Origin: Cylindrospermopsis raciborskii Cr2010
Lineage (GTDB): Bacteria > Cyanobacteriota > Cyanobacteriia > Cyanobacteriales > Nostocaceae
NCBI RefSeq assembly: GCF_003367075.2
Contig: NZ_CP065936.1
Span: 540,001-572,000, forward strand
Direction: 5' to 3'
DNA: 32,000 bases
Shown: positions 1-31,180 of the stretch, piece after piece
How positions within the stretch are numbered: position 1 is the first letter of the stretch
Layout of the letters: each line of letters begins with the position of its first letter
Position numbers and translations under genes: made by a program
The notes under the pieces: model-generated
Databases searched by the model: none
What the model saw: only the letters and a program-made list of their open reading frames with translations
What the model was told of the DNA's origin: nothing

Positions 1-215
1 AAAATGCCCGTGATTATGTGAAGCTGGTGTTGAGAACAAGATTGGGTGACATACCAGTGAAAATTGAGCAAGCTGTGGATAAAATATCAGTATTGTCTAT
101 TTTAGATGAGCTGTTAAAAGTGGCAATCAAAGTTGATTGTTTTGAGGACTTTCATCAATCCTTAGTCAAATTGTCTCCTAAAGTTCCCGAATCAAATGAG
201 TCAGATAAGAGCTAA
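1..215 (+). pseudogene. 3' end of an array copy (unit 0, cut by the window edge): DUF4351-like tail, KNARDY variant
   Basis: Identical to 1542-1756 and 2457-2671. The reading frame is in phase from nt 3 and the stop is at 213-215. Confidence 0.7.
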
Positions 216-303
216 TTATGACGAACCATGGAAAGAAGCATTAACCGAGTATTTTGAACAATTCTTCTTCTTCTTTCCTTCAATTCACCAATTAAGTGGG
301 TGA
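196..303 (+). pseudogene. 35-codon N-terminal remnant of the Rpn/YhgA-like gene (MSQIRANYDEPWKEALTEYFEQFFFFFPSIHQLSG*)
   Basis: The ATG lies inside the last codons of the preceding copy in another frame. The TGA stop lies in the MITE TIR (aagtgggTGA). The YDxPWKE..YF..FFFP pattern matches what I recall of the N-termini of cyanobacterial Rpn-like proteins. Confidence 0.5.
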
Positions 304-805
304 AAAGACAAAAGCAACCACCCGGAACCTAGGGGAGAGAGAAAAATGGAAATGGAGTTTAATCAGGGGATTATATGATAAGGGGTTCGATAGAGAGCAA
401 ATAATTCGATTATTTGGGATAATTGACATCATGATGGAGTTACCCAAAAAGTTACAGGAAAGTTTGGATAGTAAGATAAAGACATTTGAGGAGGATAGAA
501 AGATGCCGTTATTAACTAATATGGAGTTAAGAGGAATAGAAACTGGTAAGGAAATCGGTAAGGAAATCGGGAGGGAAATTGGCATATTAGAAAAAGCTCA
601 TGAAGATGTGAAGCTGGTGTTGAGAACAAGATTGGGTGACATACCAGTGAAAATTGAGCAAGCTGTGGATAAAATATCAGTATTGTCTATTTTAGATGAG
701 CTGTTAAAAGTGGCAATCAAAGTTGATTGTTTTGAGGACTTTCATCAATCCTTAGTCAAATTGTCTCCTAAAGTTCCCGAATCAAATGAGTCAGATAAGA
801 GCTAA
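296..805 (+). pseudogene. Array unit 1: Rpn/DUF4351 C-terminal fragment with a further 325-bp internal deletion (3 GKEI-type repeats, EKAHED variant)
   Basis: The track ORF opens at a GTG inside the residual MITE TIR. The sequence jumps from gtgggtga directly to aaagacaaaagcaacc, which are 325 bp apart in full units. Confidence 0.6.
545..580 (+). repeat. 12-bp in-frame tandem repeat ggtaaggaaatY (GKEI), 3 copies
   Basis: Direct reading gives 545-556, 557-568 and 569-580 (the last is gggagggaaatt). Confidence 0.9.
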
Positions 806-893
806 TTATGACGAACCATGGAAAGAAGCATTAACCGAGTATTTTGAACAATTCTTCTTCTTCTTTCCTTCAATTCACCAATTAAGTGGGTGA
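786..893 (+). pseudogene. 35-codon N-terminal remnant of the Rpn/YhgA-like gene
   Basis: Identical to 1737-1844. Confidence 0.5.
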
Positions 894-1000
894 GTGGAAT
901 TAAATATAAGATCAACGTAGGTTGGGTTGAAGTATGAAACCCAACATCCCCATGGGTCTCGTTACTCGACCCACCCTACAAATAATTGTGCCTCCCTTAT
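883..1000 (+). mobile_element. MITE (~118 bp, TIR family ATAAGTGGG...CCCACTTAT; right TIR shortened to cctcccttat)
   Basis: Matches the full copies at 31059-31180 and, in reverse complement, at 10355-10482 and 19431-19552. Internal hairpin gttgggtt/aacccaac. Confidence 0.8.
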
Positions 1001-1756
1001 AATTATCGTGCTTTTGACCTAAATCAAAAACCGGTGATTAGTTTGGCAATTCTGGGAGATGAGAGAGCTGATTGGCAACCAGAAAGTTATAATCATAACA
1101 TAGGAGGGTGTGAAGTAACCCTGAAATTCCCCATAGTAAAATTACTCAGCTATGAAGCCAAATGGTCAGAGCTAGAAGAAAGTAATAATCCTTTTGCTAT
1201 CATAGTGATGGCACATTTAAAGACAAAAGCAACCACCCGGAACCTAGGGGAGAGAGAAAAATGGAAATGGAGTTTAATCAGGGGATTATATGATAAGGGG
1301 TTCGATAGAGAGCAAATAATTCGATTATTTGGGATAATTGACATTATGATGGAGTTACCCAAAAAGTTACAGGAAAGTTTGGATAGTAAGATAAAGACAT
1401 TTGAGGAGGATAGAAAGATGCCGTTATTAACTAATATGGAGTTAAGAGGAATAGAGACTGGTAAGGAAATTGGCAAGGAAATTGGTAAGGAAATTGGTAA
1501 GGAAATTGGTAAGGAAATTGGTGAGGGAATTGGCATATTGAAAAATGCCCGTGATTATGTGAAGCTGGTGTTGAGAACAAGATTGGGTGACATACCAGTG
1601 AAAATTGAGCAAGCTGTGGATAAAATATCAGTATTGTCTATTTTAGATGAGCTGTTAAAAGTGGCAATCAAAGTTGATTGTTTTGAGGACTTTCATCAAT
1701 CCTTAGTCAAATTGTCTCCTAAAGTTCCCGAATCAAATGAGTCAGATAAGAGCTAA
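986..1756 (+). CDS. Array unit 2: Rpn/YhgA-like protein lacking the N-terminal nuclease core, DUF4351-like tail (6 GKEI-type repeats, KNARDY variant)
   Basis: 256-codon ORF from a TTG inside the MITE. Motifs YNYRAFDL, NPFAIIVMAHLKT and a helical tail RLGDIPVKIEQAVDKISVLSILDELL resemble cyanobacterial Rpn/DUF4351 proteins. The true start is uncertain; an internal ATG lies at about 1208. Confidence 0.6.
   Translation: MCLPYNYRAFDLNQKPVISLAILGDERADWQPESYNHNIGGCEVTLKFPIVKLLSYEAKWSELEESNNPFAIIVMAHLKTKATTRNLGEREKWKWSLIRGLYDKGFDREQIIRLFGIIDIMMELPKKLQESLDSKIKTFEEDRKMPLLTNMELRGIETGKEIGKEIGKEIGKEIGKEIGEGIGILKNARDYVKLVLRTRLGDIPVKIEQAVDKISVLSILDELLKVAIKVDCFEDFHQSLVKLSPKVPESNESDKS
1460..1531 (+). repeat. 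12-bp in-frame GKEI repeat, 6 copies
   Basis: Direct reading: six consecutive 12-mers, the last being ggtgagggaatt. Confidence 0.9.
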
Positions 1757-1844
1757 TTATGACGAACCATGGAAAGAAGCATTAACCGAGTATTTTGAAC
1801 AATTCTTCTTCTTCTTTCCTTCAATTCACCAATTAAGTGGGTGA
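1737..1844 (+). pseudogene. 35-codon N-terminal remnant of the Rpn/YhgA-like gene
   Basis: atg agt cag ata aga gct aat tat gac gaa cca tgg ... tta agt ggg tga. The stop lies in the MITE TIR. Confidence 0.5.
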
Positions 1845-1951
1845 GTGGAATTAAATATAAGATCAACGTAGGTTGGGTTGAAGTATGAAACCCAACATCC
1901 CCATGGGTCTCGTTACTCGACCCACCCTACAAATAATTGTGCCTCCCTTAT
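1834..1951 (+). mobile_element. MITE copy (array unit 3)
   Basis: Identical to 883-1000. Confidence 0.8.
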
Positions 1952-2671
1952 AATTATCGTGCTTTTGACCTAAATCAAAAACCGGTGATTAGTTTGGCAA
2001 TTCTGGGAGATGAGAGAGCTGATTGGCAACCAGAAAGTTATAATCATAACATAGGAGGGTGTGAAGTAACCCTGAAATTCCCCATAGTAAAATTACTCAG
2101 CTATGAAGCCAAATGGTCAGAGCTAGAAGAAAGTAATAATCCTTTTGCTATCATAGTGATGGCACATTTAAAGACAAAAGCAACCACCCGGAACCTAGGG
2201 GAGAGAGAAAAATGGAAATGGAGTTTAATCAGGGGATTATATGATAAGGGGTTCGATAGAGAGCAAATAATTCGATTATTTGGGATAATTGACATCATGA
2301 TGGAGTTACCCAAAAAGTTACAGGAAAGTTTGGATAGTAAGATAAAGACATTTGAGGAGGATAGAAAGATGCCGTTATTAACTAATATGGAGTTAAGAGG
2401 AATAGAGACTGGCAAGGAAATTGGTAAGGAAATTGGTGAGGGAATTGGCATATTGAAAAATGCCCGTGATTATGTGAAGCTGGTGTTGAGAACAAGATTG
2501 GGTGACATACCAGTGAAAATTGAGCAAGCTGTGGATAAAATATCAGTATTGTCTATTTTAGATGAGCTGTTAAAAGTGGCAATCAAAGTTGATTGTTTTG
2601 AGGACTTTCATCAATCCTTAGTCAAATTGTCTCCTAAAGTTCCCGAATCAAATGAGTCAGATAAGAGCTAA
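1937..2671 (+). CDS. Array unit 3: Rpn/YhgA-like C-terminal fragment with DUF4351-like tail (3 repeats, KNARDY variant)
   Basis: 244-codon ORF, the same as 986-1756 apart from repeat number and a silent atc/att change. Confidence 0.6.
   Translation: MCLPYNYRAFDLNQKPVISLAILGDERADWQPESYNHNIGGCEVTLKFPIVKLLSYEAKWSELEESNNPFAIIVMAHLKTKATTRNLGEREKWKWSLIRGLYDKGFDREQIIRLFGIIDIMMELPKKLQESLDSKIKTFEEDRKMPLLTNMELRGIETGKEIGKEIGEGIGILKNARDYVKLVLRTRLGDIPVKIEQAVDKISVLSILDELLKVAIKVDCFEDFHQSLVKLSPKVPESNESDKS
2411..2446 (+). repeat. 12-bp in-frame GKEI repeat, 3 copies
   Basis: Direct reading. Confidence 0.9.
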
Positions 2672-2759
2672 TTATGACGAACCATGGAAAGAAGCATTAA
2701 CCGAGTATTTTGAACAATTCTTCTTCTTCTTTCCTTCAATTCACCAATTAAGTGGGTGA
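2652..2759 (+). pseudogene. 35-codon N-terminal remnant of the Rpn/YhgA-like gene
   Basis: Identical to 1737-1844. Confidence 0.5.
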
Positions 2760-2866
2760 GTGGAATTAAATATAAGATCAACGTAGGTTGGGTTGAAGTA
2801 TGAAACCCAACATCCCCATGGGTCTCGTTACTCGACCCACCCTACAAATAATTGTGCCTCCCTTAT
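2749..2866 (+). mobile_element. MITE copy (array unit 4)
   Basis: Identical to 883-1000. Confidence 0.8.
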
Positions 2867-3610
2867 AATTATCGTGCTTTTGACCTAAATCAAAAACCGG
2901 TGATTAGTTTGGCAATTCTGGGAGATGAGAGAGCTGATTGGCAACCAGAAAGTTATAATCATAACATAGGAGGGTGTGAAGTAACCCTGAAATTCCCCAT
3001 AGTAAAATTACTCAGCTATGAAGCCAAATGGTCAGAGCTAGAAGAAAGTAATAATCCTTTTGCTATCATAGTGATGGCACATTTAAAGACAAAAGCAACC
3101 ACCCGGAACCTAGGGGAGAGAGAAAAATGGAAATGGAGTTTAATCAGGGGATTATATGATAAGGGGTTCCATAGAGAGCAAATAATTCGATTATTTGGGA
3201 TAATTGACATTATGATGGAGTTACCCAAAAAGTTACAGGAAAGTTTGGATAGTAAGATAAAGACATTTGAGGAGGATAGAAAGATGCCGTTATTAACTAA
3301 TATGGAGTTAAGAGGAATAGAGACTGGTAAGGAAATTGGCAAGGAAATTGGTAAGGAAATTGGTAAGGAAATCGGGAGGGAAATTGGCATATTAGAAAAA
3401 GCTCATGAAGATGTGAAGCTGGTGTTGAGAACAAGATTGGGTGACATACCAGTGAAAATTGAGCAAGCTGTGGATAAAATATCAGTATTGTCTATTTTAG
3501 ATGAGCTGTTAAAAGTGGCAATCAAAGTTGATTGTTTTGAGGACTTTCATCAATCCTTAGTCAAATTGTCTCCTAAAGTTCCCGAATCAAATGAGTCAGA
3601 TAAGAGCTAA
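2852..3610 (+). CDS. Array unit 4: Rpn/YhgA-like C-terminal fragment with DUF4351-like tail (5 repeats, EKAHED variant, D->H substitution)
   Basis: 252-codon ORF. GFHREQ replaces GFDREQ. Confidence 0.6.
   Translation: MCLPYNYRAFDLNQKPVISLAILGDERADWQPESYNHNIGGCEVTLKFPIVKLLSYEAKWSELEESNNPFAIIVMAHLKTKATTRNLGEREKWKWSLIRGLYDKGFHREQIIRLFGIIDIMMELPKKLQESLDSKIKTFEEDRKMPLLTNMELRGIETGKEIGKEIGKEIGKEIGREIGILEKAHEDVKLVLRTRLGDIPVKIEQAVDKISVLSILDELLKVAIKVDCFEDFHQSLVKLSPKVPESNESDKS
3326..3385 (+). repeat. 12-bp in-frame GKEI repeat, 5 copies
   Basis: Direct reading. Confidence 0.9.
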
Positions 3611-3698
3611 TTATGACGAACCATGGAAAGAAGCATTAACCGAGTATTTTGAACAATTCTTCTTCTTCTTTCCTTCAATTCACCAATTAAGTGGGTGA
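3591..3698 (+). pseudogene. 35-codon N-terminal remnant of the Rpn/YhgA-like gene
   Basis: Identical to 1737-1844. Confidence 0.5.
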
Positions 3699-3805
3699 GT
3701 GGAATTAAATATAAGATCAACGTAGGTTGGGTTGAAGTATGAAACCCAACATCCCCATGGGTCTCGTTACTCGACCCACCCTACAAATAATTGTGCCTCC
3801 CTTAT
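3688..3805 (+). mobile_element. MITE copy (array unit 5)
   Basis: Identical to 883-1000. Confidence 0.8.
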
Positions 3806-4234
3806 AATTATCGTGCTTTTGACCTAAATCAAAAACCGGTGATTAGTTTGGCAATTCTGGGAGATGAGAGAGCTGATTGGCAACCAGAAAGTTATAATCA
3901 TAACATAGGAGGGTGTGAAGTAACCCTGAAATTCCCCATAGTAAAATTACTCAGCTATGAAGCCAAATGGTCAGAGCTAGAAGAAAGTAATAATCCTTTT
4001 GCTATCATAGTGATGGCACATTTAAAGACAAAAGCAACCACCCGGAACCTAGGGGAGAGAGAAAAATGGAAATGGAGTTTAATCAGGGGATTATATGATA
4101 AGGGGTTCCATAGAGAGCAAATAATTCGATTATTTGGGATAATTGACATCATGATGGAGTTACCCAAAAAGTTACAGGAAAGTTTGGATACATATTGGGA
4201 TCTTAAAACTGTAAACACACAAAAACGGTTCTAA
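3791..4234 (+). pseudogene. Array unit 5: 3'-truncated copy; homology to the other units ends at about 4190-4192, and the ORF then reads into the flanking direct repeat
   Basis: Identical to the other units up to ..KKLQESLD. It then diverges (TYWDLKTVNTQKRF*) into sequence that recurs at 12961. Confidence 0.7.
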
Positions 4235-5560: not shown

Positions 5561-8500
5561 ATGATATATTCTCAAAACAAGTCTGTTCACGAGCTGTTTA
5601 TGCAGCAAGTAGAAAAATCGCCTGATGCAGTGGCAATAATCTTTGAAAATCAGCAGTTGACCTATGGAGAATTAAACTGTAAAGCCAATCAACTAGCGCA
5701 TTATTTGCAATCGATTGGTGTAGGACCAGAGGTGTTTGTAGGTCTTTGTGTAACTCGTTCCATAGAAATAGTTATTGGAATTATGGGTATCCTCAAAGCG
5801 GGTGGTGCTTATGTTCCTTTGGACCCTGCTTATCCCCAGGAAAGGCTAGCATTTATGCTAGAGGATGCCAAGCCAAAGGTAGTTTTAACTGAAAATCAGT
5901 GTTTAGAGGCGCTGCCTATTATCAACGCCACGGTTTTATGTTTAGATGCGGACTGGCAAAAAATTGAGCAACAAAGTGAAGATAATCCCAGTTGTGATGT
6001 TACACCAGATAATTTGGCCTACTTAATATATACTTCTGGCTCTACTGGTAAGCCAAAAGGAGTACAAATGCCCCATAGCAGTATTGTGAATTATCTCCAG
6101 GGTATAACTAAAATAATCCCGGTTGATAACCAAGATATTTACCTGCATACAGCATCTTTCTCATTTACTGCTTCAGTCAGACAACTATTCCTACCCTTAT
6201 CCCAAGGCGCAGCTGTTGTTATTGCTACCCGTGAAAAAACCAGAGATCCCCTTAGGTTATTTGAACTAATTGAAACACAAGAGGTCACTATCTGTGATGG
6301 CGTGCCCTCGGTGTGGCGTTATGGACTCATGGCTTTGGAAAGTTTAGACAAAAAATATACAGTAGCTATAGGGGAATCAAAGCTAAAATACCTCATATTT
6401 GGCGGGGAGTTACTACCTTATCAACTAATTAAGAAATTACGTAACCTATTTCAAACTCCACCTCAATTTTTTAATATCCTAGGTCAAACGGAAACTATTG
6501 GTAATGCTTTTTATCCCATTCCTGAAAACTGCGATATTGAACAAGGATATGTTCCCGTTGGTAATCCCCTCCAAGACATGCAACAGGTTTACGTCCTCAA
6601 CTCCCAACTGGAACCGGTGAAAAATGGAGAATCTGGAGAACTGCACATAGCTGGTGGTACATTAGCACGTGGTTATTTAAACCGCGTCCATGCCAATGCT
6701 GAAAAATTTATTAATAATCCCTTTAATCCCCAGCAAAAACTTTTCAAAACCGGGGATGTAGCTCGACACTGCCAAGATGGTACTTTAGAAATTCTTGGTC
6801 GGATTGACTTTCAGGTAAATATCCGAGGGATGCGCGTAGAACTGGAAGAAATTGAAGCCATATTAAAACTGCATCCCTCAGTTCGAGAAGGTGCAATTAG
6901 CCTCCGAGAGGATATACCGGGAGATCAGCGCTTGGTTGCCTATATCGTCCCTAACACTCAAACCTTAGACTTGGCAGAAATTCGGAACTTTATAGAGCAT
7001 AAACTACCAGATTATATGGTTCCTAATGCCTTTGTGTTGATAGAAAAACTGCCAGTATTACCCAACGGAAAGTTAGACAGGAATAATTTACCCGTACCAA
7101 ATCTATCTGCTGGAATTAGTAACTTTGTTGCACCCCGTAACCCCCAAGAAGAACTAATAGCTAACATTTGGGGAGAAGTTTTAGGACTGGAGAAAGTAGG
7201 CATTTATGACAACTTTTTAGAATTGGGGGGACATTCTCTACTTGCCAGTTTAGTTGTATCAAGATTGCGCGAAGCCCTATCTTTGGAGCTATCCATCAGC
7301 ATTTTATTTGAAGCGCCAACTATAGCTAGTTTAAGCGAAAAAGTTACAACTTTTCAGGATGATTTTCATCCCACTAATTCCCTCCCAATTTTACAGCCAG
7401 TTTCCCGAACTGCAGAATCACCTTTATCTTTGATTCAACAGAGATTTTGGATTCTTGACCAAATGGAAGGAGCAAATGCAGCTTACAATATTACCAGAGC
7501 TTTGCACTTATTTGGTTCCCTGAATTTAATGGCACTTCAACAAGCAGTGCAGTCAATTATTCAACGTCACGAAACCCTGCGTACTTCTTTTGGTATATCA
7601 GAAGGAAAACCAGTGCAATTTATTGCAGAAACTTTATCATTCACCTTACCATTAGTAGATTTACAAACCCTAGCAGAAGTTGAAAGAGAGGCAGAATTAC
7701 AACGCTTAATTACCGCTGAATATACAGAAGCTTTTGATTTAAGCCAAGCCCCTCTACTAAGAGTAAAACTGATTCGCCTGGAATCAAATTCCCATATTTT
7801 GCTAGTCACCATGCACCACATAATCTCGGATGCTTGGTCAGTAGCAATTTTCTTCAAGGAATTGTCGAGTTTATATGGAAATTCTCCCCTGGCAAACTTG
7901 CCAGTTCAGTATGCAGATTATGCTTACTGGCAACGTCAAGGGCTGCAAAATGATGTTATCAATACCCAGATAAGCTATTGGAAACAACAGTTAGCAGACG
8001 CTCCATCAATCATAGAATTACCAACAGATTACCCCCGTTCCGCTGTTCAAACATTTCGCGGTAGTATCCACCGGTTTAGATTGGGTAATGACCTGACTAA
8101 CAAACTGAAAATATTAAGTCAGAAGTCGGGTACTTCTCTATTTATGACGCTGCAAGCAGCTTTTGTCACCTTTCTTTATCGTTACACTGGCCAAGAAGAT
8201 ATTGTTATTGGCTCCCCTATTACTAACCGCAATCGTCAAGCCCTCGAGTCATTAATTGGGTTTTTTGTCAACACTTTAGTTTTACGTACTCGCTTAGAAA
8301 ACAATCCTACGTTTAAACAACTATTATCCCAGGTGCGACAGGTTGCTCTTGATGCTTATGTTCATCAAGACTTACCTTTTGATACCCTAGTTGAAGCTCT
8401 ACAACCCAAACGGCACAAAAATCTCAGTCCCCTGTTTCAGGTAATGTTTGTATTGCAAAATTCTCCCTTGGAAAAATTCAACTTACCAGGTCTGAATGTA

Positions 8501-10297
8501 ACCCAAATTGAATTAAATAGACCTACAGCAGGAGCGACTTTTGATTTGACCCTGTCGATGCAAGAAGTAAATTTAGAACTCATAGGAGCCTTTGAATATA
8601 ACGCCAATTTGTTTGACACCACAACCATCGCCCGCATGGTAGATAATTTTCAAACTTTGGTGGAGTCTATTGTTAGTAATCCTGATGAAAAGGTGGGAGA
8701 ATTACCATTACTCTCAGCAGCGCAAAAACATCAGCTACTTGTGGAATGGAATAACACACAAACTGATTATCCTCACCAATGTATTCATCAATTATTTGAG
8801 CAACAAGTAGAAAGAACACCAGATGCGATCGCTATCCAATGGGAAAATCAACAACTTACCTATCGGGAGTTAAATAATCAAGCCAATCAACTAGCCCACT
8901 ATTTGCAGTTTCTGGGTGTTAGTGCACAAACTTTGGTGGGAATTTATTTAGAGCGATCGCCTAAAATCATCATCGCCATGCTAGGGATCCTGAAAGCTGG
9001 AGGTGCTTATTTACCATTGGATCCTAGCCATCCGAGCGATCGCTTGACATTTATGCTGCAAGATGCAAAAGCCTTTTTACTTTTGACAGAACAGCAGCTA
9101 GGGGGAAAACTGACCAATGTTGAGCAGATTTGTTTAGATCGGGACTGGTCCATCATTGCCCAAAGGAACCAACAGAACTTGAACTGCGATACTACCCCGG
9201 ATAATTTGGCTCATGTTATTTACACATCAGGGTCAACGGGTCAACCTAAAGGTGTGATGGTTACTCATTGCGGGGTAGTGCGGTTAGTAGTCAATACTGA
9301 CTATGTAAACTTGCAACCGACAGATGTAATTGCACAAGCTTCTAATACTGGCTTTGACGCTGCTACCTTTGAGATTTGGGGAGCATTACTCAATGGTGCA
9401 AAACTCGTAATTCTCGATAGAGAAACCATACTATCACCACGAGATTTTGCCAGTAGCTTACAAACCCACGGTATTACCATCTTGCTTATCACGACCGCAC
9501 TATTTAACCAAATGGTTCAACAAGTACCGATGGCATTTCGACATTTACACTACTTATTAAAGCAGTTGGCCTATTGGGTAGAGAAATTAACCAATACCTC
9601 ACAAATAGCTGATAATTTTTCTAACATTCCGCCACAGGTGAGTAGGAGTGCATCCGTTTATTCCATAGTTTTATCAGCCAGTATGGTTAGGTCAATTGAA
9701 GCCTTCAGTCTTGAGCAAAAAGTTACTATCTTTGTGATTATCATCACTGCTCTGAACATACTTTTGTTTAATTACAGCGGTAAAAACGATATTTTAGTAA
9801 TGACAACAGTTGGTAATCGTAGTTCAGTGGAAACTGAAACAATGCTCGGTTGCTTCATCAACGATGTAATTTTGCACTCTCATTTCTCATCTGAGGAAAC
9901 CGCACTTACTCTTCTAGAACAAGTCCAACAAACCCTCATAGAAGCAATCAACAATAAAGAAATTGCCTCTCGAACAGTCATTGACACTATCACCAGTAAA
10001 CAACCACTGAATATCTCTGCATCCCTAACTATGTTACCCCCACAAAATTGGCATAACCGGATGTTGGATTTTGAATTTGTATCGATTAAGCGTGATCTGA
10101 GTTTATGGGATGAAGAAATTCCTTTAGAAATTTATGTTTCTTCACCTTCAGTAAATAATCCCACCATTGAAATTAAAGTTTTTTACAGCACGGAGCTATT
10201 TACAAATGATACTATAGAGTTTATGTTTACTTATTACCAAGAAATTCTCCAAAAAATTGTGCAAAATCCAAACAGACCAATTACCCAATTTGGATAA
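5561..10297 (+). CDS. Non-ribosomal peptide synthetase: A - T - C - A(N-terminal part only) fused in frame to a C-domain C-terminal half; no TE
   Basis: - A1 cores: LAYLIYTSGSTGKPKG, GELHIAGGTLARGY, FKTGD, GRIDFQVNIRGMRVE, NGKLD.
- T: LGGHS, with the Ser codon at 7235-7237.
- C: SLIQQRFW, RHETLRTSF, MHHIISDAWS (7811-7837), IGFFVNTLVLR.
- A2 cores: LAHVIYTSGSTGQPKG and FDAATFE, then a break after ..FRHLHYLL (about 9559).
- After the break comes a C-domain-like QLAYW...NRSSVETETMLGCFIND segment. Confidence 0.9.
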   Translation: MIYSQNKSVHELFMQQVEKSPDAVAIIFENQQLTYGELNCKANQLAHYLQSIGVGPEVFVGLCVTRSIEIVIGIMGILKAGGAYVPLDPAYPQERLAFMLEDAKPKVVLTENQCLEALPIINATVLCLDADWQKIEQQSEDNPSCDVTPDNLAYLIYTSGSTGKPKGVQMPHSSIVNYLQGITKIIPVDNQDIYLHTASFSFTASVRQLFLPLSQGAAVVIATREKTRDPLRLFELIETQEVTICDGVPSVWRYGLMALESLDKKYTVAIGESKLKYLIFGGELLPYQLIKKLRNLFQTPPQFFNILGQTETIGNAFYPIPENCDIEQGYVPVGNPLQDMQQVYVLNSQLEPVKNGESGELHIAGGTLARGYLNRVHANAEKFINNPFNPQQKLFKTGDVARHCQDGTLEILGRIDFQVNIRGMRVELEEIEAILKLHPSVREGAISLREDIPGDQRLVAYIVPNTQTLDLAEIRNFIEHKLPDYMVPNAFVLIEKLPVLPNGKLDRNNLPVPNLSAGISNFVAPRNPQEELIANIWGEVLGLEKVGIYDNFLELGGHSLLASLVVSRLREALSLELSISILFEAPTIASLSEKVTTFQDDFHPTNSLPILQPVSRTAESPLSLIQQRFWILDQMEGANAAYNITRALHLFGSLNLMALQQAVQSIIQRHETLRTSFGISEGKPVQFIAETLSFTLPLVDLQTLAEVEREAELQRLITAEYTEAFDLSQAPLLRVKLIRLESNSHILLVTMHHIISDAWSVAIFFKELSSLYGNSPLANLPVQYADYAYWQRQGLQNDVINTQISYWKQQLADAPSIIELPTDYPRSAVQTFRGSIHRFRLGNDLTNKLKILSQKSGTSLFMTLQAAFVTFLYRYTGQEDIVIGSPITNRNRQALESLIGFFVNTLVLRTRLENNPTFKQLLSQVRQVALDAYVHQDLPFDTLVEALQPKRHKNLSPLFQVMFVLQNSPLEKFNLPGLNVTQIELNRPTAGATFDLTLSMQEVNLELIGAFEYNANLFDTTTIARMVDNFQTLVESIVSNPDEKVGELPLLSAAQKHQLLVEWNNTQTDYPHQCIHQLFEQQVERTPDAIAIQWENQQLTYRELNNQANQLAHYLQFLGVSAQTLVGIYLERSPKIIIAMLGILKAGGAYLPLDPSHPSDRLTFMLQDAKAFLLLTEQQLGGKLTNVEQICLDRDWSIIAQRNQQNLNCDTTPDNLAHVIYTSGSTGQPKGVMVTHCGVVRLVVNTDYVNLQPTDVIAQASNTGFDAATFEIWGALLNGAKLVILDRETILSPRDFASSLQTHGITILLITTALFNQMVQQVPMAFRHLHYLLKQLAYWVEKLTNTSQIADNFSNIPPQVSRSASVYSIVLSASMVRSIEAFSLEQKVTIFVIIITALNILLFNYSGKNDILVMTTVGNRSSVETETMLGCFINDVILHSHFSSEETALTLLEQVQQTLIEAINNKEIASRTVIDTITSKQPLNISASLTMLPPQNWHNRMLDFEFVSIKRDLSLWDEEIPLEIYVSSPSVNNPTIEIKVFYSTELFTNDTIEFMFTYYQEILQKIVQNPNRPITQFG

Positions 10298-10354: not shown

Positions 10355-10482
10355 ATAAGTAGGGAGGCACAATTATTTGTATTTGTAGGATGGGTCTCGT
10401 TCCTCGACCCGTGCGGGCGTTGGGTTTCATACTTCAACCCAACCTACGTTCATCTTATATTTAATTTCACCCACCCACTTAT
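10355..10482 (-). mobile_element. MITE, full-length copy, reverse orientation, in the NRPS-MFS intergenic region
   Basis: ataagtagggaggcacaattatt...gttgggtttcatacttcaacccaacctacgttcatcttatatttaatttcacccacccacttat is the reverse complement of the array MITE. Confidence 0.85.
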
Positions 10483-12031: not shown

Positions 12032-12961
12032 ATGGTAAGTAAAAAACCCAAACCTCAGAAAAAAAAGTCTTCCGACACCCTAAATAGAGACTGGCACCGC
12101 CTCTTAGGAATGTTTATGACCGTCCACTTCTATAATAGCCCTTATGAGGTAGAAGTAGAAAAGGATCTAACCATCAGAAAACAACTGCTAGACATCATAG
12201 TCATTAAGAGATATAAAGACAGTGGATTCAATTTGTATCCAGCAGGTTTAGAAAACATGTCTAAACACAACCTAATCAGCTATAAGTCCATTCATGAATC
12301 ATTCACAGTTTGGTCACTAATGGAACTAATAGGACACTATGTCAATTATCGGAAGCAAACAAGTAAATCCTTGTCGAACCTGCTACCAGAGGAGGATTAC
12401 AGACTGTACGGATTAACAACCCACGAACCGACCCAATTAATGGGGAGATTAAAATGGAAAACTGTCAGTGAAGGGGTTTATGATATAGAATGTGTTAGCA
12501 TGAACGTGAGACTGATAGTGCTGTCGAAAATACCCAAAAGTGTCAACAATGAGTTGTGGAGACTGTTTAGTGCGAGAGCAGAAGTGGTGGAAGAAGCGAT
12601 TAGCCATTATCAAGAAAGTTATCGCAAGAGCGAGTATAGCATATTAATGCAACAACTATATGAGTTTTACTTAAAGGAGAAACTGCCAATGACATACACA
12701 TTAGAGCAATTCAAAAAAGATTTTGTAATAAGTCACTTGAGAGAGATACCAACTGAAGAAGTGTTGAAGCAATATTCTCCCGAAGAGGTATTAAAGCAAT
12801 ATTCTCCCGAAGAGGTGTTAAAGCAATATTCTCCCGAAGAGGTGTTAAAGCAATATTCTCCTCAGGACCTCCTAGAAGGACTTTCACCAGAGACGCTACA
12901 GCACTTGGCAGTTATTCTGTCTCAATTGGGTGTCAACCAAATAAAAAATCAGGAGCAATGA
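12032..12961 (+). CDS. Hypothetical protein, possibly a second Rpn/YhgA-like PD-(D/E)XK-type putative nuclease/transposase, with C-terminal EEVLKQYSP x4 repeats
   Basis: 309-aa ORF. The N-terminal half has an E..E..D...LDIIVIK pattern. The repeat-rich C-terminal tail resembles ..SPEE..K.LSPEE.. tails that I recall from cyanobacterial Rpn-like proteins. The family assignment is tentative. Confidence 0.4.
   Translation: MVSKKPKPQKKKSSDTLNRDWHRLLGMFMTVHFYNSPYEVEVEKDLTIRKQLLDIIVIKRYKDSGFNLYPAGLENMSKHNLISYKSIHESFTVWSLMELIGHYVNYRKQTSKSLSNLLPEEDYRLYGLTTHEPTQLMGRLKWKTVSEGVYDIECVSMNVRLIVLSKIPKSVNNELWRLFSARAEVVEEAISHYQESYRKSEYSILMQQLYEFYLKEKLPMTYTLEQFKKDFVISHLREIPTEEVLKQYSPEEVLKQYSPEEVLKQYSPEEVLKQYSPQDLLEGLSPETLQHLAVILSQLGVNQIKNQEQ
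12755..12862 (+). repeat. 27-bp in-frame tandem repeat, 4 copies (EEVLKQYSP)
   Basis: gaagaRgtRttRaagcaatattctccY at 12755, 12782, 12809 and 12836. Confidence 0.9.
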
Positions 12962-19430: not shown

Positions 19431-19552
19431 GTAAGTAGATATGCACAATTATTTGTAGGATGGGTCGAGTAACGAGACCCATGGGGGTGTTGGGTTTCAT
19501 ACTTCAACCCAACCTACGTTCATCTTATATTTAATTCCACCCACTTACTTAT
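19431..19552 (-). mobile_element. MITE, full-length copy, reverse orientation, ending 12 nt upstream of the pglX ATG
   Basis: ...gcacaattatttgtaggatgggtcgagtaacgagacccatgggggtgttgggtttcatacttcaacccaacctacgttcatcttatatttaattccacccacttacttat. Confidence 0.85.
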
Positions 19553-30795: not shown

Positions 30796-30912
30796 TAAGT
30801 TTCTTAATAAATCCAATCTTTAGATGGACGTAGGTTGGGTTGAAGTATGAAACCCAACGCCACGGGTCTCCTTACTCGACCCATCCTACAAATAATTGTG
30901 CCTCCCTACTTA
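30796..30912 (+). mobile_element. MITE copy with a diverged left arm
   Basis: acgtaggttgggttgaagtatgaaacccaacgccacgggtctccttactcgacccatcctacaaataattgtgcctccctactta. The left 34 bp have the same length as the consensus arm but are diverged. Confidence 0.7.
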
Positions 30913-31058: not shown

Positions 31059-31180
31059 ATAAGTGGGTGAGTGGAATTAAATATAAGATGAACGTAGGAC
31101 GGGTTGAAGTATGAAACCCAACGCCCGCATGGGTTTCGTTCCTCAACCCATCCTAGAAATAATTTTGCCTCCCCACTTAT
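31059..31180 (+). mobile_element. MITE, best-preserved full copy (perfect 9-bp TIR ataagtggg / cccacttat)
   Basis: ataagtgggtgagtggaattaaatataagatgaacgtaggacgggttgaagtatgaaacccaacgcccgcatgggtttcgttcctcaacccatcctagaaataattttgcctccccacttat. Confidence 0.85.

Follow-up and report, generated by a model that had tools for sequence, protein, structure and literature searches.

The Rpn proteins of Escherichia coli are toxin/antitoxin-type antiphage nucleases, in which the full-length product, RpnL, is a toxic endonuclease that is blocked by RpnS, a protein made from an internal start (Zhong et al., 2023, PMC10400941). The four-amino-acid (4-aa) repeats of RpnS, of the KGIE type, begin 8-20 residues after its start, within the first helix, and neutralisation of an RpnL takes an RpnS of equal repeat number; in some cases RpnS is encoded by a DUF4351 gene of its own, and rpn arrays are generated by tandem direct duplication, with no autonomous mobility found (PMC10400941). 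As for the nuclease domain, RpnA-promoted recombination is abolished in mutants of residues D11, D63, E82, Q84 and R94, and all of these except Q84A and R94A have also lost toxicity and SOS induction (Kingston et al., 2017, PMC5350276). In this work we describe a tandem array of an Rpn-type gene at the start of a 32,000-nucleotide stretch of the Cylindrospermopsis raciborskii genome (assembly GCF_003367075.2, contig NZ_CP065936.1, positions 540,001 to 572,000 of the forward strand), referred to here as the window and numbered from its first letter. All units that the window shows go back to a single allele, in which a miniature inverted-repeat transposable element (MITE) lies after codon 34 and the adjacent 192 bp are deleted. 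The locus represents a degenerate form of an Rpn-family array that varies between strains, a variant of a recently described kind and no new category.

The likeness to E. coli Rpn (RpnA-E, RpnP2) and RpnS (Kingston et al., 2017, PMC5350276; Zhong et al., 2023, PMC10400941) includes the YhgA-like N-domain, of predicted PD-(D/E)XK type here, in which five key residues agree between the two, and a variable helical C-terminal domain with an internal start, which is here a sequence signature. In both, repeats of 12 bp, or 4 aa, are present in variable number 8-20 residues past the internal start (KGIE in E. coli Rpn, GKEI here), and multi-copy genes and tandem arrays, as found here, have been reported for rpn genes. 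The cyanobacterial branch differs in falling below the Pfam and TIGRFAM thresholds, with about 25% identity to recognised members, and in that repeat number varies between the units of one array (1-10) and not between strains only. Its arrays reach at least 15 units, its open reading frames (ORFs) overlap by 20 nt and most units in the window are devoid of the nuclease core. Toxicity, nuclease activity, small-protein expression and phage defence, as known for E. coli Rpn, are putative in the cyanobacterial branch. A literature search gave no description of these arrays in C. raciborskii.

Structure of the array in the window

The array covers positions 1-4190, where 5.5 units of about 0.9-1 kb each are arranged head-to-tail, with pairwise identities of 98.6-99.9%, far above chance; a first-pass annotation of the window, made from the letters alone, had counted at least 5.5 near-identical units, and this was borne out. 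All the array features described below are on the forward strand. Position 1 falls inside the array, so that its left end and total unit number are outside the view. A 28-nt micro-ORF start recurs exactly at 196, 786, 1737, 2652 and 3591, the positions of the micro-ORF ATGs, at intervals of 590, 951, 915 and 939 bp. Three parts make up a unit: a micro-ORF, called (a), the MITE and a long ORF, called (c). This anatomy is complete in the full units 786-1736, 1737-2651 and 2652-3590 and is also seen in the truncated unit 3591-~4190.

Micro-ORF (a) (786-893; further copies at 196-303, 1737-1844, 2652-2759 and 3591-3698) corresponds to codons 1-34 of the Rpn-like gene, followed by SG and a stop from the MITE, and is 85% identical to residues 1-34 of the intact protein (tblastn). 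ORF (c) (986-1756; further copies at 1937-2671 and 2852-3610, and a truncated copy at 3791-4234) opens at a TTG inside the MITE, equals residues 99 to end of the intact protein and is annotated as a protein in GenBank records. The lengths given beforehand, 35 codons for the micro-ORF and 244-256 codons for ORF (c), hold in the full units, and the three full units and the truncated one all take the TGA from the left end of the MITE and the TTG from its right end, as had been described. Consecutive units meet at a 20-nt overlap junction, ATGAGTCAGATAAGAGCTAA (1737-1756; also 196-215, 786-805, 2652-2671 and 3591-3610), in which the end of the long ORF overlaps the next micro-ORF start; the ATG had been placed inside the preceding long ORF in another frame, and it lies 20 nt inside.

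Individual units, which we name A to F, can be told apart by small differences. Almost all the variation in unit length is due to the 12-bp GKEI minisatellite (Tandem Repeats Finder: 1459-1533, and also 545-579, 2410-2448 and 3325-3387), and besides this a short cluster of substitutions directly 3' of the minisatellite separates the units. Unit A (1-195) is the 3' part of a unit, equivalent to residues 266-334 of the intact protein (tblastn) and 100% identical to the matching part of units C and D; it carries the tail haplotype KNARDY, and the array extends upstream of it beyond the window. Units C (786-1736), D (1737-2651) and E (2652-3590) are full and MITE-bearing, with six, three and five 4-aa repeats, respectively. 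The 256-aa ORF of unit C has an identical copy at the same locus in strain Cr2010 (CP091284.1), unit D is not in the Cr2010 array and unit E has the tail haplotype EKAHED. Unit F (3591-4190) bears the MITE and is cut mid-gene (..QESLD|TYWDL..), forming the fixed right edge of the array: array homology stops at ~4190, and 4191-4234 is flanking DNA that is read through by the last ORF. This edge and its flank recur in Cr2010 (CP091284.1) with 1 mismatch in 1411 nt.

Unit B (196-785) consists of the micro-ORF, a 9-nt MITE vestige, AGTGGGTGA, and then the gene from codon ~173 onward, according to the unit alignment. The first-pass annotation had stated that every unit carries the same MITE, which does not apply to this one, where just the first 9 nt are retained. 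Unit B does share del3@70, the 3-bp deletion marking all MITE units, and therefore, on the evidence of this marker, it derives from a MITE unit by a secondary 325-bp deletion and shares the common descent of the others.

About six amino acid changes within 12 residues, directly after the repeats (unit gene coordinates 804-841, e.g. window 1546-1563 vs 3401-3418), separate the two tail haplotypes, ..GILKNARDYV.. and ..GILEKAHEDV... The haplotypes are shuffled among units and strains, in what resembles a local hypervariable patch.

The founding lesion

Comparison with the intact 346-aa unit of the Cr2010 array reveals identity with the MITE units throughout, except that nt 103-294 are replaced by the MITE. 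The replaced stretch is 192 bp long, exactly codons 35-98, in agreement with tblastn, which matched residues 1-34 and then 99 to end. It had been proposed that (a) and (c) are the N-terminus and the C-terminal part of an Rpn-type gene and that the catalytic segment between them was replaced by the MITE, and the collinearity of the intact unit outside codons 35-98 supports both points. The lost codons hold D63, E83, Q85 and R95, which correspond to D63, E82, Q84 and R94 of RpnA, and D9 is the one key residue of the five that the window units keep. With codons 35-98 gone and four of the five essential residues lost, the window units are therefore, as judged from their sequence, derivatives of an Rpn family gene and not functional nucleases. 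The MITE units of four strains have an identical lesion and the linked 3-bp deletion is present in all of them, which points to a single event followed by amplification. Of the earlier proposal of one MITE-linked deletion that was then amplified, the single founding lesion stands; the tie between the array and the MITE does not, given the intact units, the MITE-free second locus and the Microcystis arrays described below.

TA-targeting MITEs of the IS630/Tc1-mariner type occur in cyanobacteria. The insert in the array measures 113 bp (885-997, against a first estimate of ~118 bp; further array copies at 1836-1948, 2751-2863 and 3690-3802), is inserted at the TA 883-884 and has a truncated right terminus, since alignment with dispersed copies indicates that its last 3 nt and the flanking TA are missing. 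Four such copies are dispersed over intergenic parts of the window, their cores being at 10419-10447 (-), 19489-19517 (-), 30830-30858 (+) and 31094-31122 (+); they have both ends in common, with imperfect terminal inverted repeats (TAAGTGGG... / ...CCCTACTTA) and TA flanks each, and MITE copies are also present at other loci. The intact gene has one TA at the insertion point. The element, short, non-coding and present in several dispersed copies that agree at both ends and have terminal inverted repeats with TA on either side, is a genuine dispersed MITE. It resembles MITEs of the IS630/Tc1-mariner type in its short non-coding sequence, imperfect terminal inverted repeats, TA flanks, dispersed intergenic copies and internal hairpins (here 8-bp, at 921-945), and departs from the usual such element in that the array copy is truncated at one end and that 192 bp next to it are deleted. 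Its local abundance is attributed to host recombination rather than transposition. An Rfam search of the whole window gave no match, and the idea that the MITE or the unit is a known RNA found no support.

With respect to the dispersed copies, the two near 31 kb are only ~260 bp apart, and the one at 30830 has a different left arm. In addition, a 29-nt exact match to the MITE core occurs in a contig of a Microcystis novacekii metagenome-assembled genome (L065 5224-5252), which could mean a shared MITE family, horizontal transfer or mis-binning.

Assignment to the Rpn family

The Rpn/YhgA-like nuclease family has the entries PF04754, TIGR01784 and COG5464. Profile searches with Pfam and NCBIfam were run on the window ORFs and on intact paralogues. 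ORF (c) of the window gave no PF04754 match and reached E = 0.023 with TIGR01784 (14.5 bits vs a cutoff of 52.1); intact paralogues were also below the cutoffs (PF04754, 15 bits vs 21; TIGR01784, 21 bits vs 52), and the DUF4351 profile (PF14261) had no match at E <= 1 in the window ORFs or in the closest intact paralogues. The first-pass annotation had named the lack of significant hits of (a) or (c) to Rpn/DUF4351 profiles as a result that would tell against its family call, and direct matches are indeed absent or below threshold, so that family membership rests on transitive evidence. This evidence is strong. The closest proteins to the window ORFs come from C. raciborskii, and an exhaustive homologue search returned 5,611 cluster representatives at E <= 1e-3, 65 of which were used to build an alignment, A2. 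In A2, residues D9, W12, K13, D63, R95, D119 and K146 are invariant and H81, E83 and Q85 nearly so; D9, D63, E83, Q85 and R95, all of them invariant or at least 90% conserved, are the equivalents of RpnA D11, D63, E82, Q84 and R94. DUF4351 is matched by 18 of the 65 members (best E = 3e-9) and PF04754 by 15 (E <= 0.01), and the A2 profile aligns in its catalytic core with E. coli RpnA (E = 3e-3) and RpnC (E = 3e-4).

The link is closed by a Microcystis protein that passes both DUF4351 (72.9 bits) and PF04754 (21.0 bits, at cutoff): hhalign matched A2 to this DUF4351 and YhgA-like protein end to end, over 294 collinear columns (probability 99.7%, E = 8e-27), and in the profile comparison the tail aligns with the DUF4351 region of the bona fide member. 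Among plasmid homologues, at 42-57% identity, the annotation reads 'DUF4351 domain-containing protein' or 'Rpn family recombination-promoting nuclease'. For an intact paralogue, AlphaFold2 gave a confident model (mean predicted local distance difference test score, pLDDT, 92.6) that has an N-domain with a four-stranded sheet flanked by helices; its best Foldseek matches in the PDB were the PD-(D/E)XK nucleases Cap4, NucS/EndoMS, EcoO109I and TnsA, all weak (E > 0.1), and a profile search of PDB sequences gave nothing relevant. Together these comparisons give the protein a predicted nuclease N-domain of the YhgA-like PD-(D/E)XK kind and a helical tail, putatively a divergent form of DUF4351, and place it in a cyanobacterial branch of Rpn; the family call had been right, by way of the transitive evidence (hhalign).

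Variation between strains, a second locus and Microcystis arrays

The array site in C. raciborskii is between queA and a fatty-acid hydroxylase gene. Arrays at the same locus in other strains mix intact units of 334-366 aa with MITE units and range from 4.6 to at least 15 units, and this comparison of the locus among strains, which had been proposed as a check, thus revealed differences in copy number. Cr2010 (CP091284.1) has a left partial unit, one intact unit, two MITE units and a truncated MITE unit, one unit fewer than the window, with its intact 346-aa unit directly upstream of the MITE units. GCA_006523545.1 has a left partial unit, one intact, one frameshifted and two MITE units and a truncated unit, next to a deletion, while in GCA_051062915.1 at least 15 units span ~14 kb, five of them intact (338-366 aa), with nine MITE units interspersed; counted with the truncated unit, the MITE units number about 2.6 in each of the first two arrays. 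Across strains the array keeps the same left and right edge and varies in its interior alone. Intact units in the arrays of other strains have the same 20-nt overlap junction.

Short-read assemblies fail to span the locus and break at the array, which raises the question of whether the array might be an assembly artefact in which a repeat was over-expanded or mis-joined. However, the units differ by single-nucleotide polymorphisms, by minisatellite length and by one large deletion; differing arrays independently occupy the same site in long contigs from another four strains, two or more of which are complete-genome records, and a fifth record carries the array of a second locus. An artefact is thus hardly credible.

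This second locus (CP195152.1, CP073250.1) holds an array that is 86% identical in DNA, with at least six intact units and no MITE; it has the same type of 20-nt overlap junction and is polymorphic between its two strains. Microcystis genomes hold homologous arrays, with full-length, core-deleted and C-terminal-only units. In the Microcystis core-deleted unit, residues 1-66 are joined to ~157 onward via a short 'SVISYQ' repeat, SVISYQLSVISYQ.

Several observations on the surroundings of these arrays can be added. In GCA_006523545.1 (L078 14341-15990) the fatty-acid hydroxylase gene and the 5' part of a nonribosomal peptide synthetase (NRPS) gene are missing directly right of the array, which suggests an array-adjacent deletion. 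The Microcystis core-deleted variant occurs in several genomes (L022 8228-8990, L052 9764-10567, and also L014, L015, L053, L054, L058 and L060) and parallels the MITE allele, with an independent origin. The GKEI-type arrays of Microcystis lie directly downstream of a distinct Rpn paralogue (L052 8781-9713), ~25% identical and with GIEQ repeats, which is a bona fide DUF4351 and YhgA-like protein; similar paralogue matches were found just upstream of the arrays in L014, L017, L019, L025-L028, L036 and L055. Finally, a scrambled, diverged remnant of gene residues ~116-137 is located just left of the array at L001 7975-8040, suggesting an older, decayed copy at the array edge.

Junctions, array ends and formation of the array

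The array at locus 1, the site of the window array, starts near residue 87, behind a degenerate remnant, and stops near residue 227; that at locus 2 starts near residue 232 and stops ~57 nt inside the unit that follows. Both arrays therefore end mid-gene at both ends. The coincidence of unit boundaries with gene boundaries had been taken as a clue to how the array arose, but the phase of a tandem repeat is arbitrary and this coincidence is uninformative, the more so in arrays that end mid-gene. The nearly spacer-free arrangement has a simpler explanation. In Microcystis, units are joined by a stop codon, TAG, and a 21-nt spacer; Cylindrospermopsis has TTG or TTA at the homologous codon, and its ORF crosses a 22-nt spacer plus 20 nt of the next gene. 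Spacers of the two genera are thus equal in length within 1 nt, with a stop-to-sense change at the same codon, and the spacer-less overlap is probably the outcome of a lost stop codon. The loss would have taken place in the Cylindrospermopsis lineage, and each ORF would therefore run through the ~22-nt spacer into the next ATG, which gives the array its spacer-less look.

Another explanation is that a gene-length mobile unit passed through a circular or rolling-circle intermediate and that the array is a concatemer of this, an origin also suggested in the first-pass annotation. A single, almost spacer-free junction type at two loci, plausibly homologous in Microcystis, would fit this, and so would ends in arbitrary phase, as expected of an inserted concatemer fragment. 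Yet the units lack flanking terminal repeats and target duplications, no Rep/HUH or integrase gene is nearby, the termini are out of phase with the unit junction at both arrays and the flanking genes are housekeeping genes. The edges are fixed between strains and the interior changes, as unequal crossing-over predicts, and in the published work on rpn arrays tandem direct duplication was preferred and no autonomous mobility was found (PMC10400941). The circular origin thus found no support, and we regard it as very improbable.

Intact units in the same array, the MITE-free second locus and the Microcystis arrays indicate that amplification is not tied to the MITE. By these sequence comparisons amplification is independent of the element, and we infer that the array is older than the MITE. 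Tandem gene amplification and concerted evolution by unequal crossing-over belong to general bacterial genetics, and the array conforms to them in its single junction type, near-identical units, polymorphic copy number, fixed edges and variants spread between units. It is unlike a typical amplification in that the unit is a single defence- or toxin-type gene with a minisatellite, which adds up to two nested levels of repeat instability. We propose that the array grows, shrinks and is shuffled by unequal homologous recombination and gene conversion between its ~1-kb units. Recombination would have spread the dead MITE allele among intact units, or replaced these by it; one MITE unit later lost a further 325 bp.

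A conserved putative internal start and the possible role of the dead units

Each unit has a Shine-Dalgarno-like GAGGAGGA followed, after 8 nt, by an ATG (MPLLTNMELRGIET) and then by the GKEI repeats. The RpnS-like small ORF that starts behind GAGGAGGA-N8-ATG is 112 aa long in unit C (1418-1756), with copies at 503-805 (100 aa), 2369-2671 (100 aa) and 3284-3610 (108 aa). It is intact, with 92-128 aa, in all the units with a C-terminal part (36/36, from five array instances at two loci), and the number of GKEI repeats ranges from 1 to 10 across units and strains. In the Microcystis arrays, too, small ORFs are intact in the core-deleted and C-terminal-only units, which arose there independently. 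The putative internal start is conserved among the relatives, with Met in 52 of 65 and Val in 9 more (61/65 together), and is preceded by EEE. GKEI repeats start 8 or 14 residues after a Met, in a long predicted first helix, as described for RpnS; the AlphaFold2 model of the small ORF (mean pLDDT 92.6) consists of one long helix and three short ones. Seven independent disruptive events were recorded, all upstream of the internal start. They comprise the MITE-associated deletion, that of unit B, the nonsense mutations G134* and S30*, two 1-bp indels and a frameshift at locus 2.

These features are what would be expected if intact units encoded RpnL-type toxic nucleases together with an RpnS-type antitoxin from the conserved internal start, with the number of GKEI repeats setting which antitoxin fits which toxin. 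The MITE units, which keep the C-terminal ORF without the nuclease, could still supply the small C-terminal protein and would therefore persist as antitoxin-only genes. We see about an even chance that this is so, with unequal recombination having remodelled an Rpn toxin/antitoxin-type array in which the dead units probably live on in that antitoxin-only form. The closest precedent would be the stand-alone RpnS/DUF4351 genes, such as that in rpnE-ypaA, where a C-terminal-only unit lies beside full-length rpn copies (PMC10400941). The C-terminal-only units of Microcystis are like these genes, and MITE units could be functional equivalents, with the differences that the antitoxin-only state would here have been reached via a MITE and a deletion, that the N-terminal stub and the middle of the gene are kept and that the MITE allele has been amplified several-fold.

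Several results weigh against this interpretation. The micro-ORF and ORF (c) of the window reached no curated Pfam or NCBIfam threshold, and Foldseek found no significant match among solved structures in the PDB, RpnA-S included, for either the full-length or the small-ORF model. The upstream bias of the seven disruptions is marginal (p about 0.07 by relative length), as is the similarity of the Microcystis and Cylindrospermopsis spacers when taken alone (p = 0.07). Equal repeat numbers in neighbouring units were found in none of 31 pairs, which is not significant given shared ancestry (shuffling P = 0.05-0.37). For (c), no promoter-like site is present in the MITE on that strand, and there are only weak consensus matches inside the units. 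With units more than 98.6% identical, intact small ORFs could mean youth or homogenisation and not selection, and the window contains no intact unit, hence no cognate toxin can be seen from the window alone. PADLOC gave no match and the neighbourhood (queA, the fatty-acid hydroxylase gene, the NRPS gene) is no defence island; the phage collection had no homologues. A known defence system or a phage-borne family is likewise not supported, PADLOC and the phage collection being without matches.

The main rival accepts the same structure and history but takes the MITE units for inert pseudogenes, the null allele of a costly toxin gene having drifted, or been favoured, to high copy. It would account for the near identity of the units (98.6-99.9%) as young and continually homogenised copies, and further decay is evident in the 325-bp deletion of unit B and, in other strains, in G134*, S30* and the 1-bp indels. 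The missing promoter for (c) and the lack of significance of the tests of neighbouring repeat numbers and of disruption position (p about 0.07) are also in line with it. On the other hand, none of the 36 small ORFs is disrupted, as compared with the seven independent events upstream, core-deleted and C-terminal-only units recur in the Microcystis arrays of several genomes, and there is experimental precedent for stand-alone RpnS genes (PMC10400941). We consider inert pseudogenes a substantial but less probable account. The antitoxin-only interpretation is favoured, although the data cannot separate it from the young-pseudogene one.

It was also proposed in the first-pass annotation that the long product itself matters. 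Selection for dosage of a nuclease-dead C-terminal domain is possible, and in its specific form ORF (c), read from the MITE TTG, would yield a functional 244-256-aa nuclease-dead scaffold, dominant-negative or DNA-binding, with selected dosage. The frame is open in the three full units of the window and annotated as a protein in GenBank records; against this, the TTG has no Shine-Dalgarno-like sequence in front of it, a promoter-like site is absent from the MITE, the first ~75 codons of (c) are missing in unit B, and in other strains nonsense and frameshift mutations affect the 5' half of (c) and leave the 3' third open. We find such a scaffold improbable. A role of the MITE as a promoter for (c) was not supported, with no promoter-like site on that strand of the element.

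Starting from the favoured antitoxin-only interpretation, a more far-reaching idea, which we put forward as a speculation that is unlikely to hold in full, is that the arrays could be libraries of orthogonal Rpn toxin/antitoxin pairs barcoded by GKEI number, where the dead units would be an amplified antitoxin-only reserve that buffers or tunes the toxins, and recombination and slippage would make new specificities. If true, the targets of the reserve would be intact units of the same array, the second array or incoming elements.

The branch of ~5,600 cluster representatives to which these genes belong is missed by curated profile thresholds and is mostly annotated as hypothetical; the MITE-opened ORFs, too, are called by automated annotation as hypothetical proteins of the ordinary sort. 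In Cylindrospermopsis and Microcystis, both bloom-formers, the branch is organised as long, strain-variable arrays, in which differing repeat numbers coexist in one genome and nuclease-dead units with the putative antitoxin part recur. The arrays offer a natural system in which to test the repeat-number specificity code and the role of toxin-less units as antitoxin reserves, and their length, the many repeat numbers per genome and the recurrence of toxin-less units make them worth following up.

Neighbouring genes

Beside the array, the NRPS gene (5561-10297) encodes 1578 aa here and in three draft genomes, and its orthologue has 2112 aa in Cr2010 and in metagenome contigs. The difference in length implies an internal deletion of ~534 aa, by which AMP-binding_C and PP-binding parts of the second module were removed. 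Further to the right, a 27-bp tandem repeat in 4 copies (12755-12861) lies inside the ORF 12032-12961, whose product has 309 aa here and in one metagenome contig and 281 aa in Cr2010, its length being apparently strain-variable.

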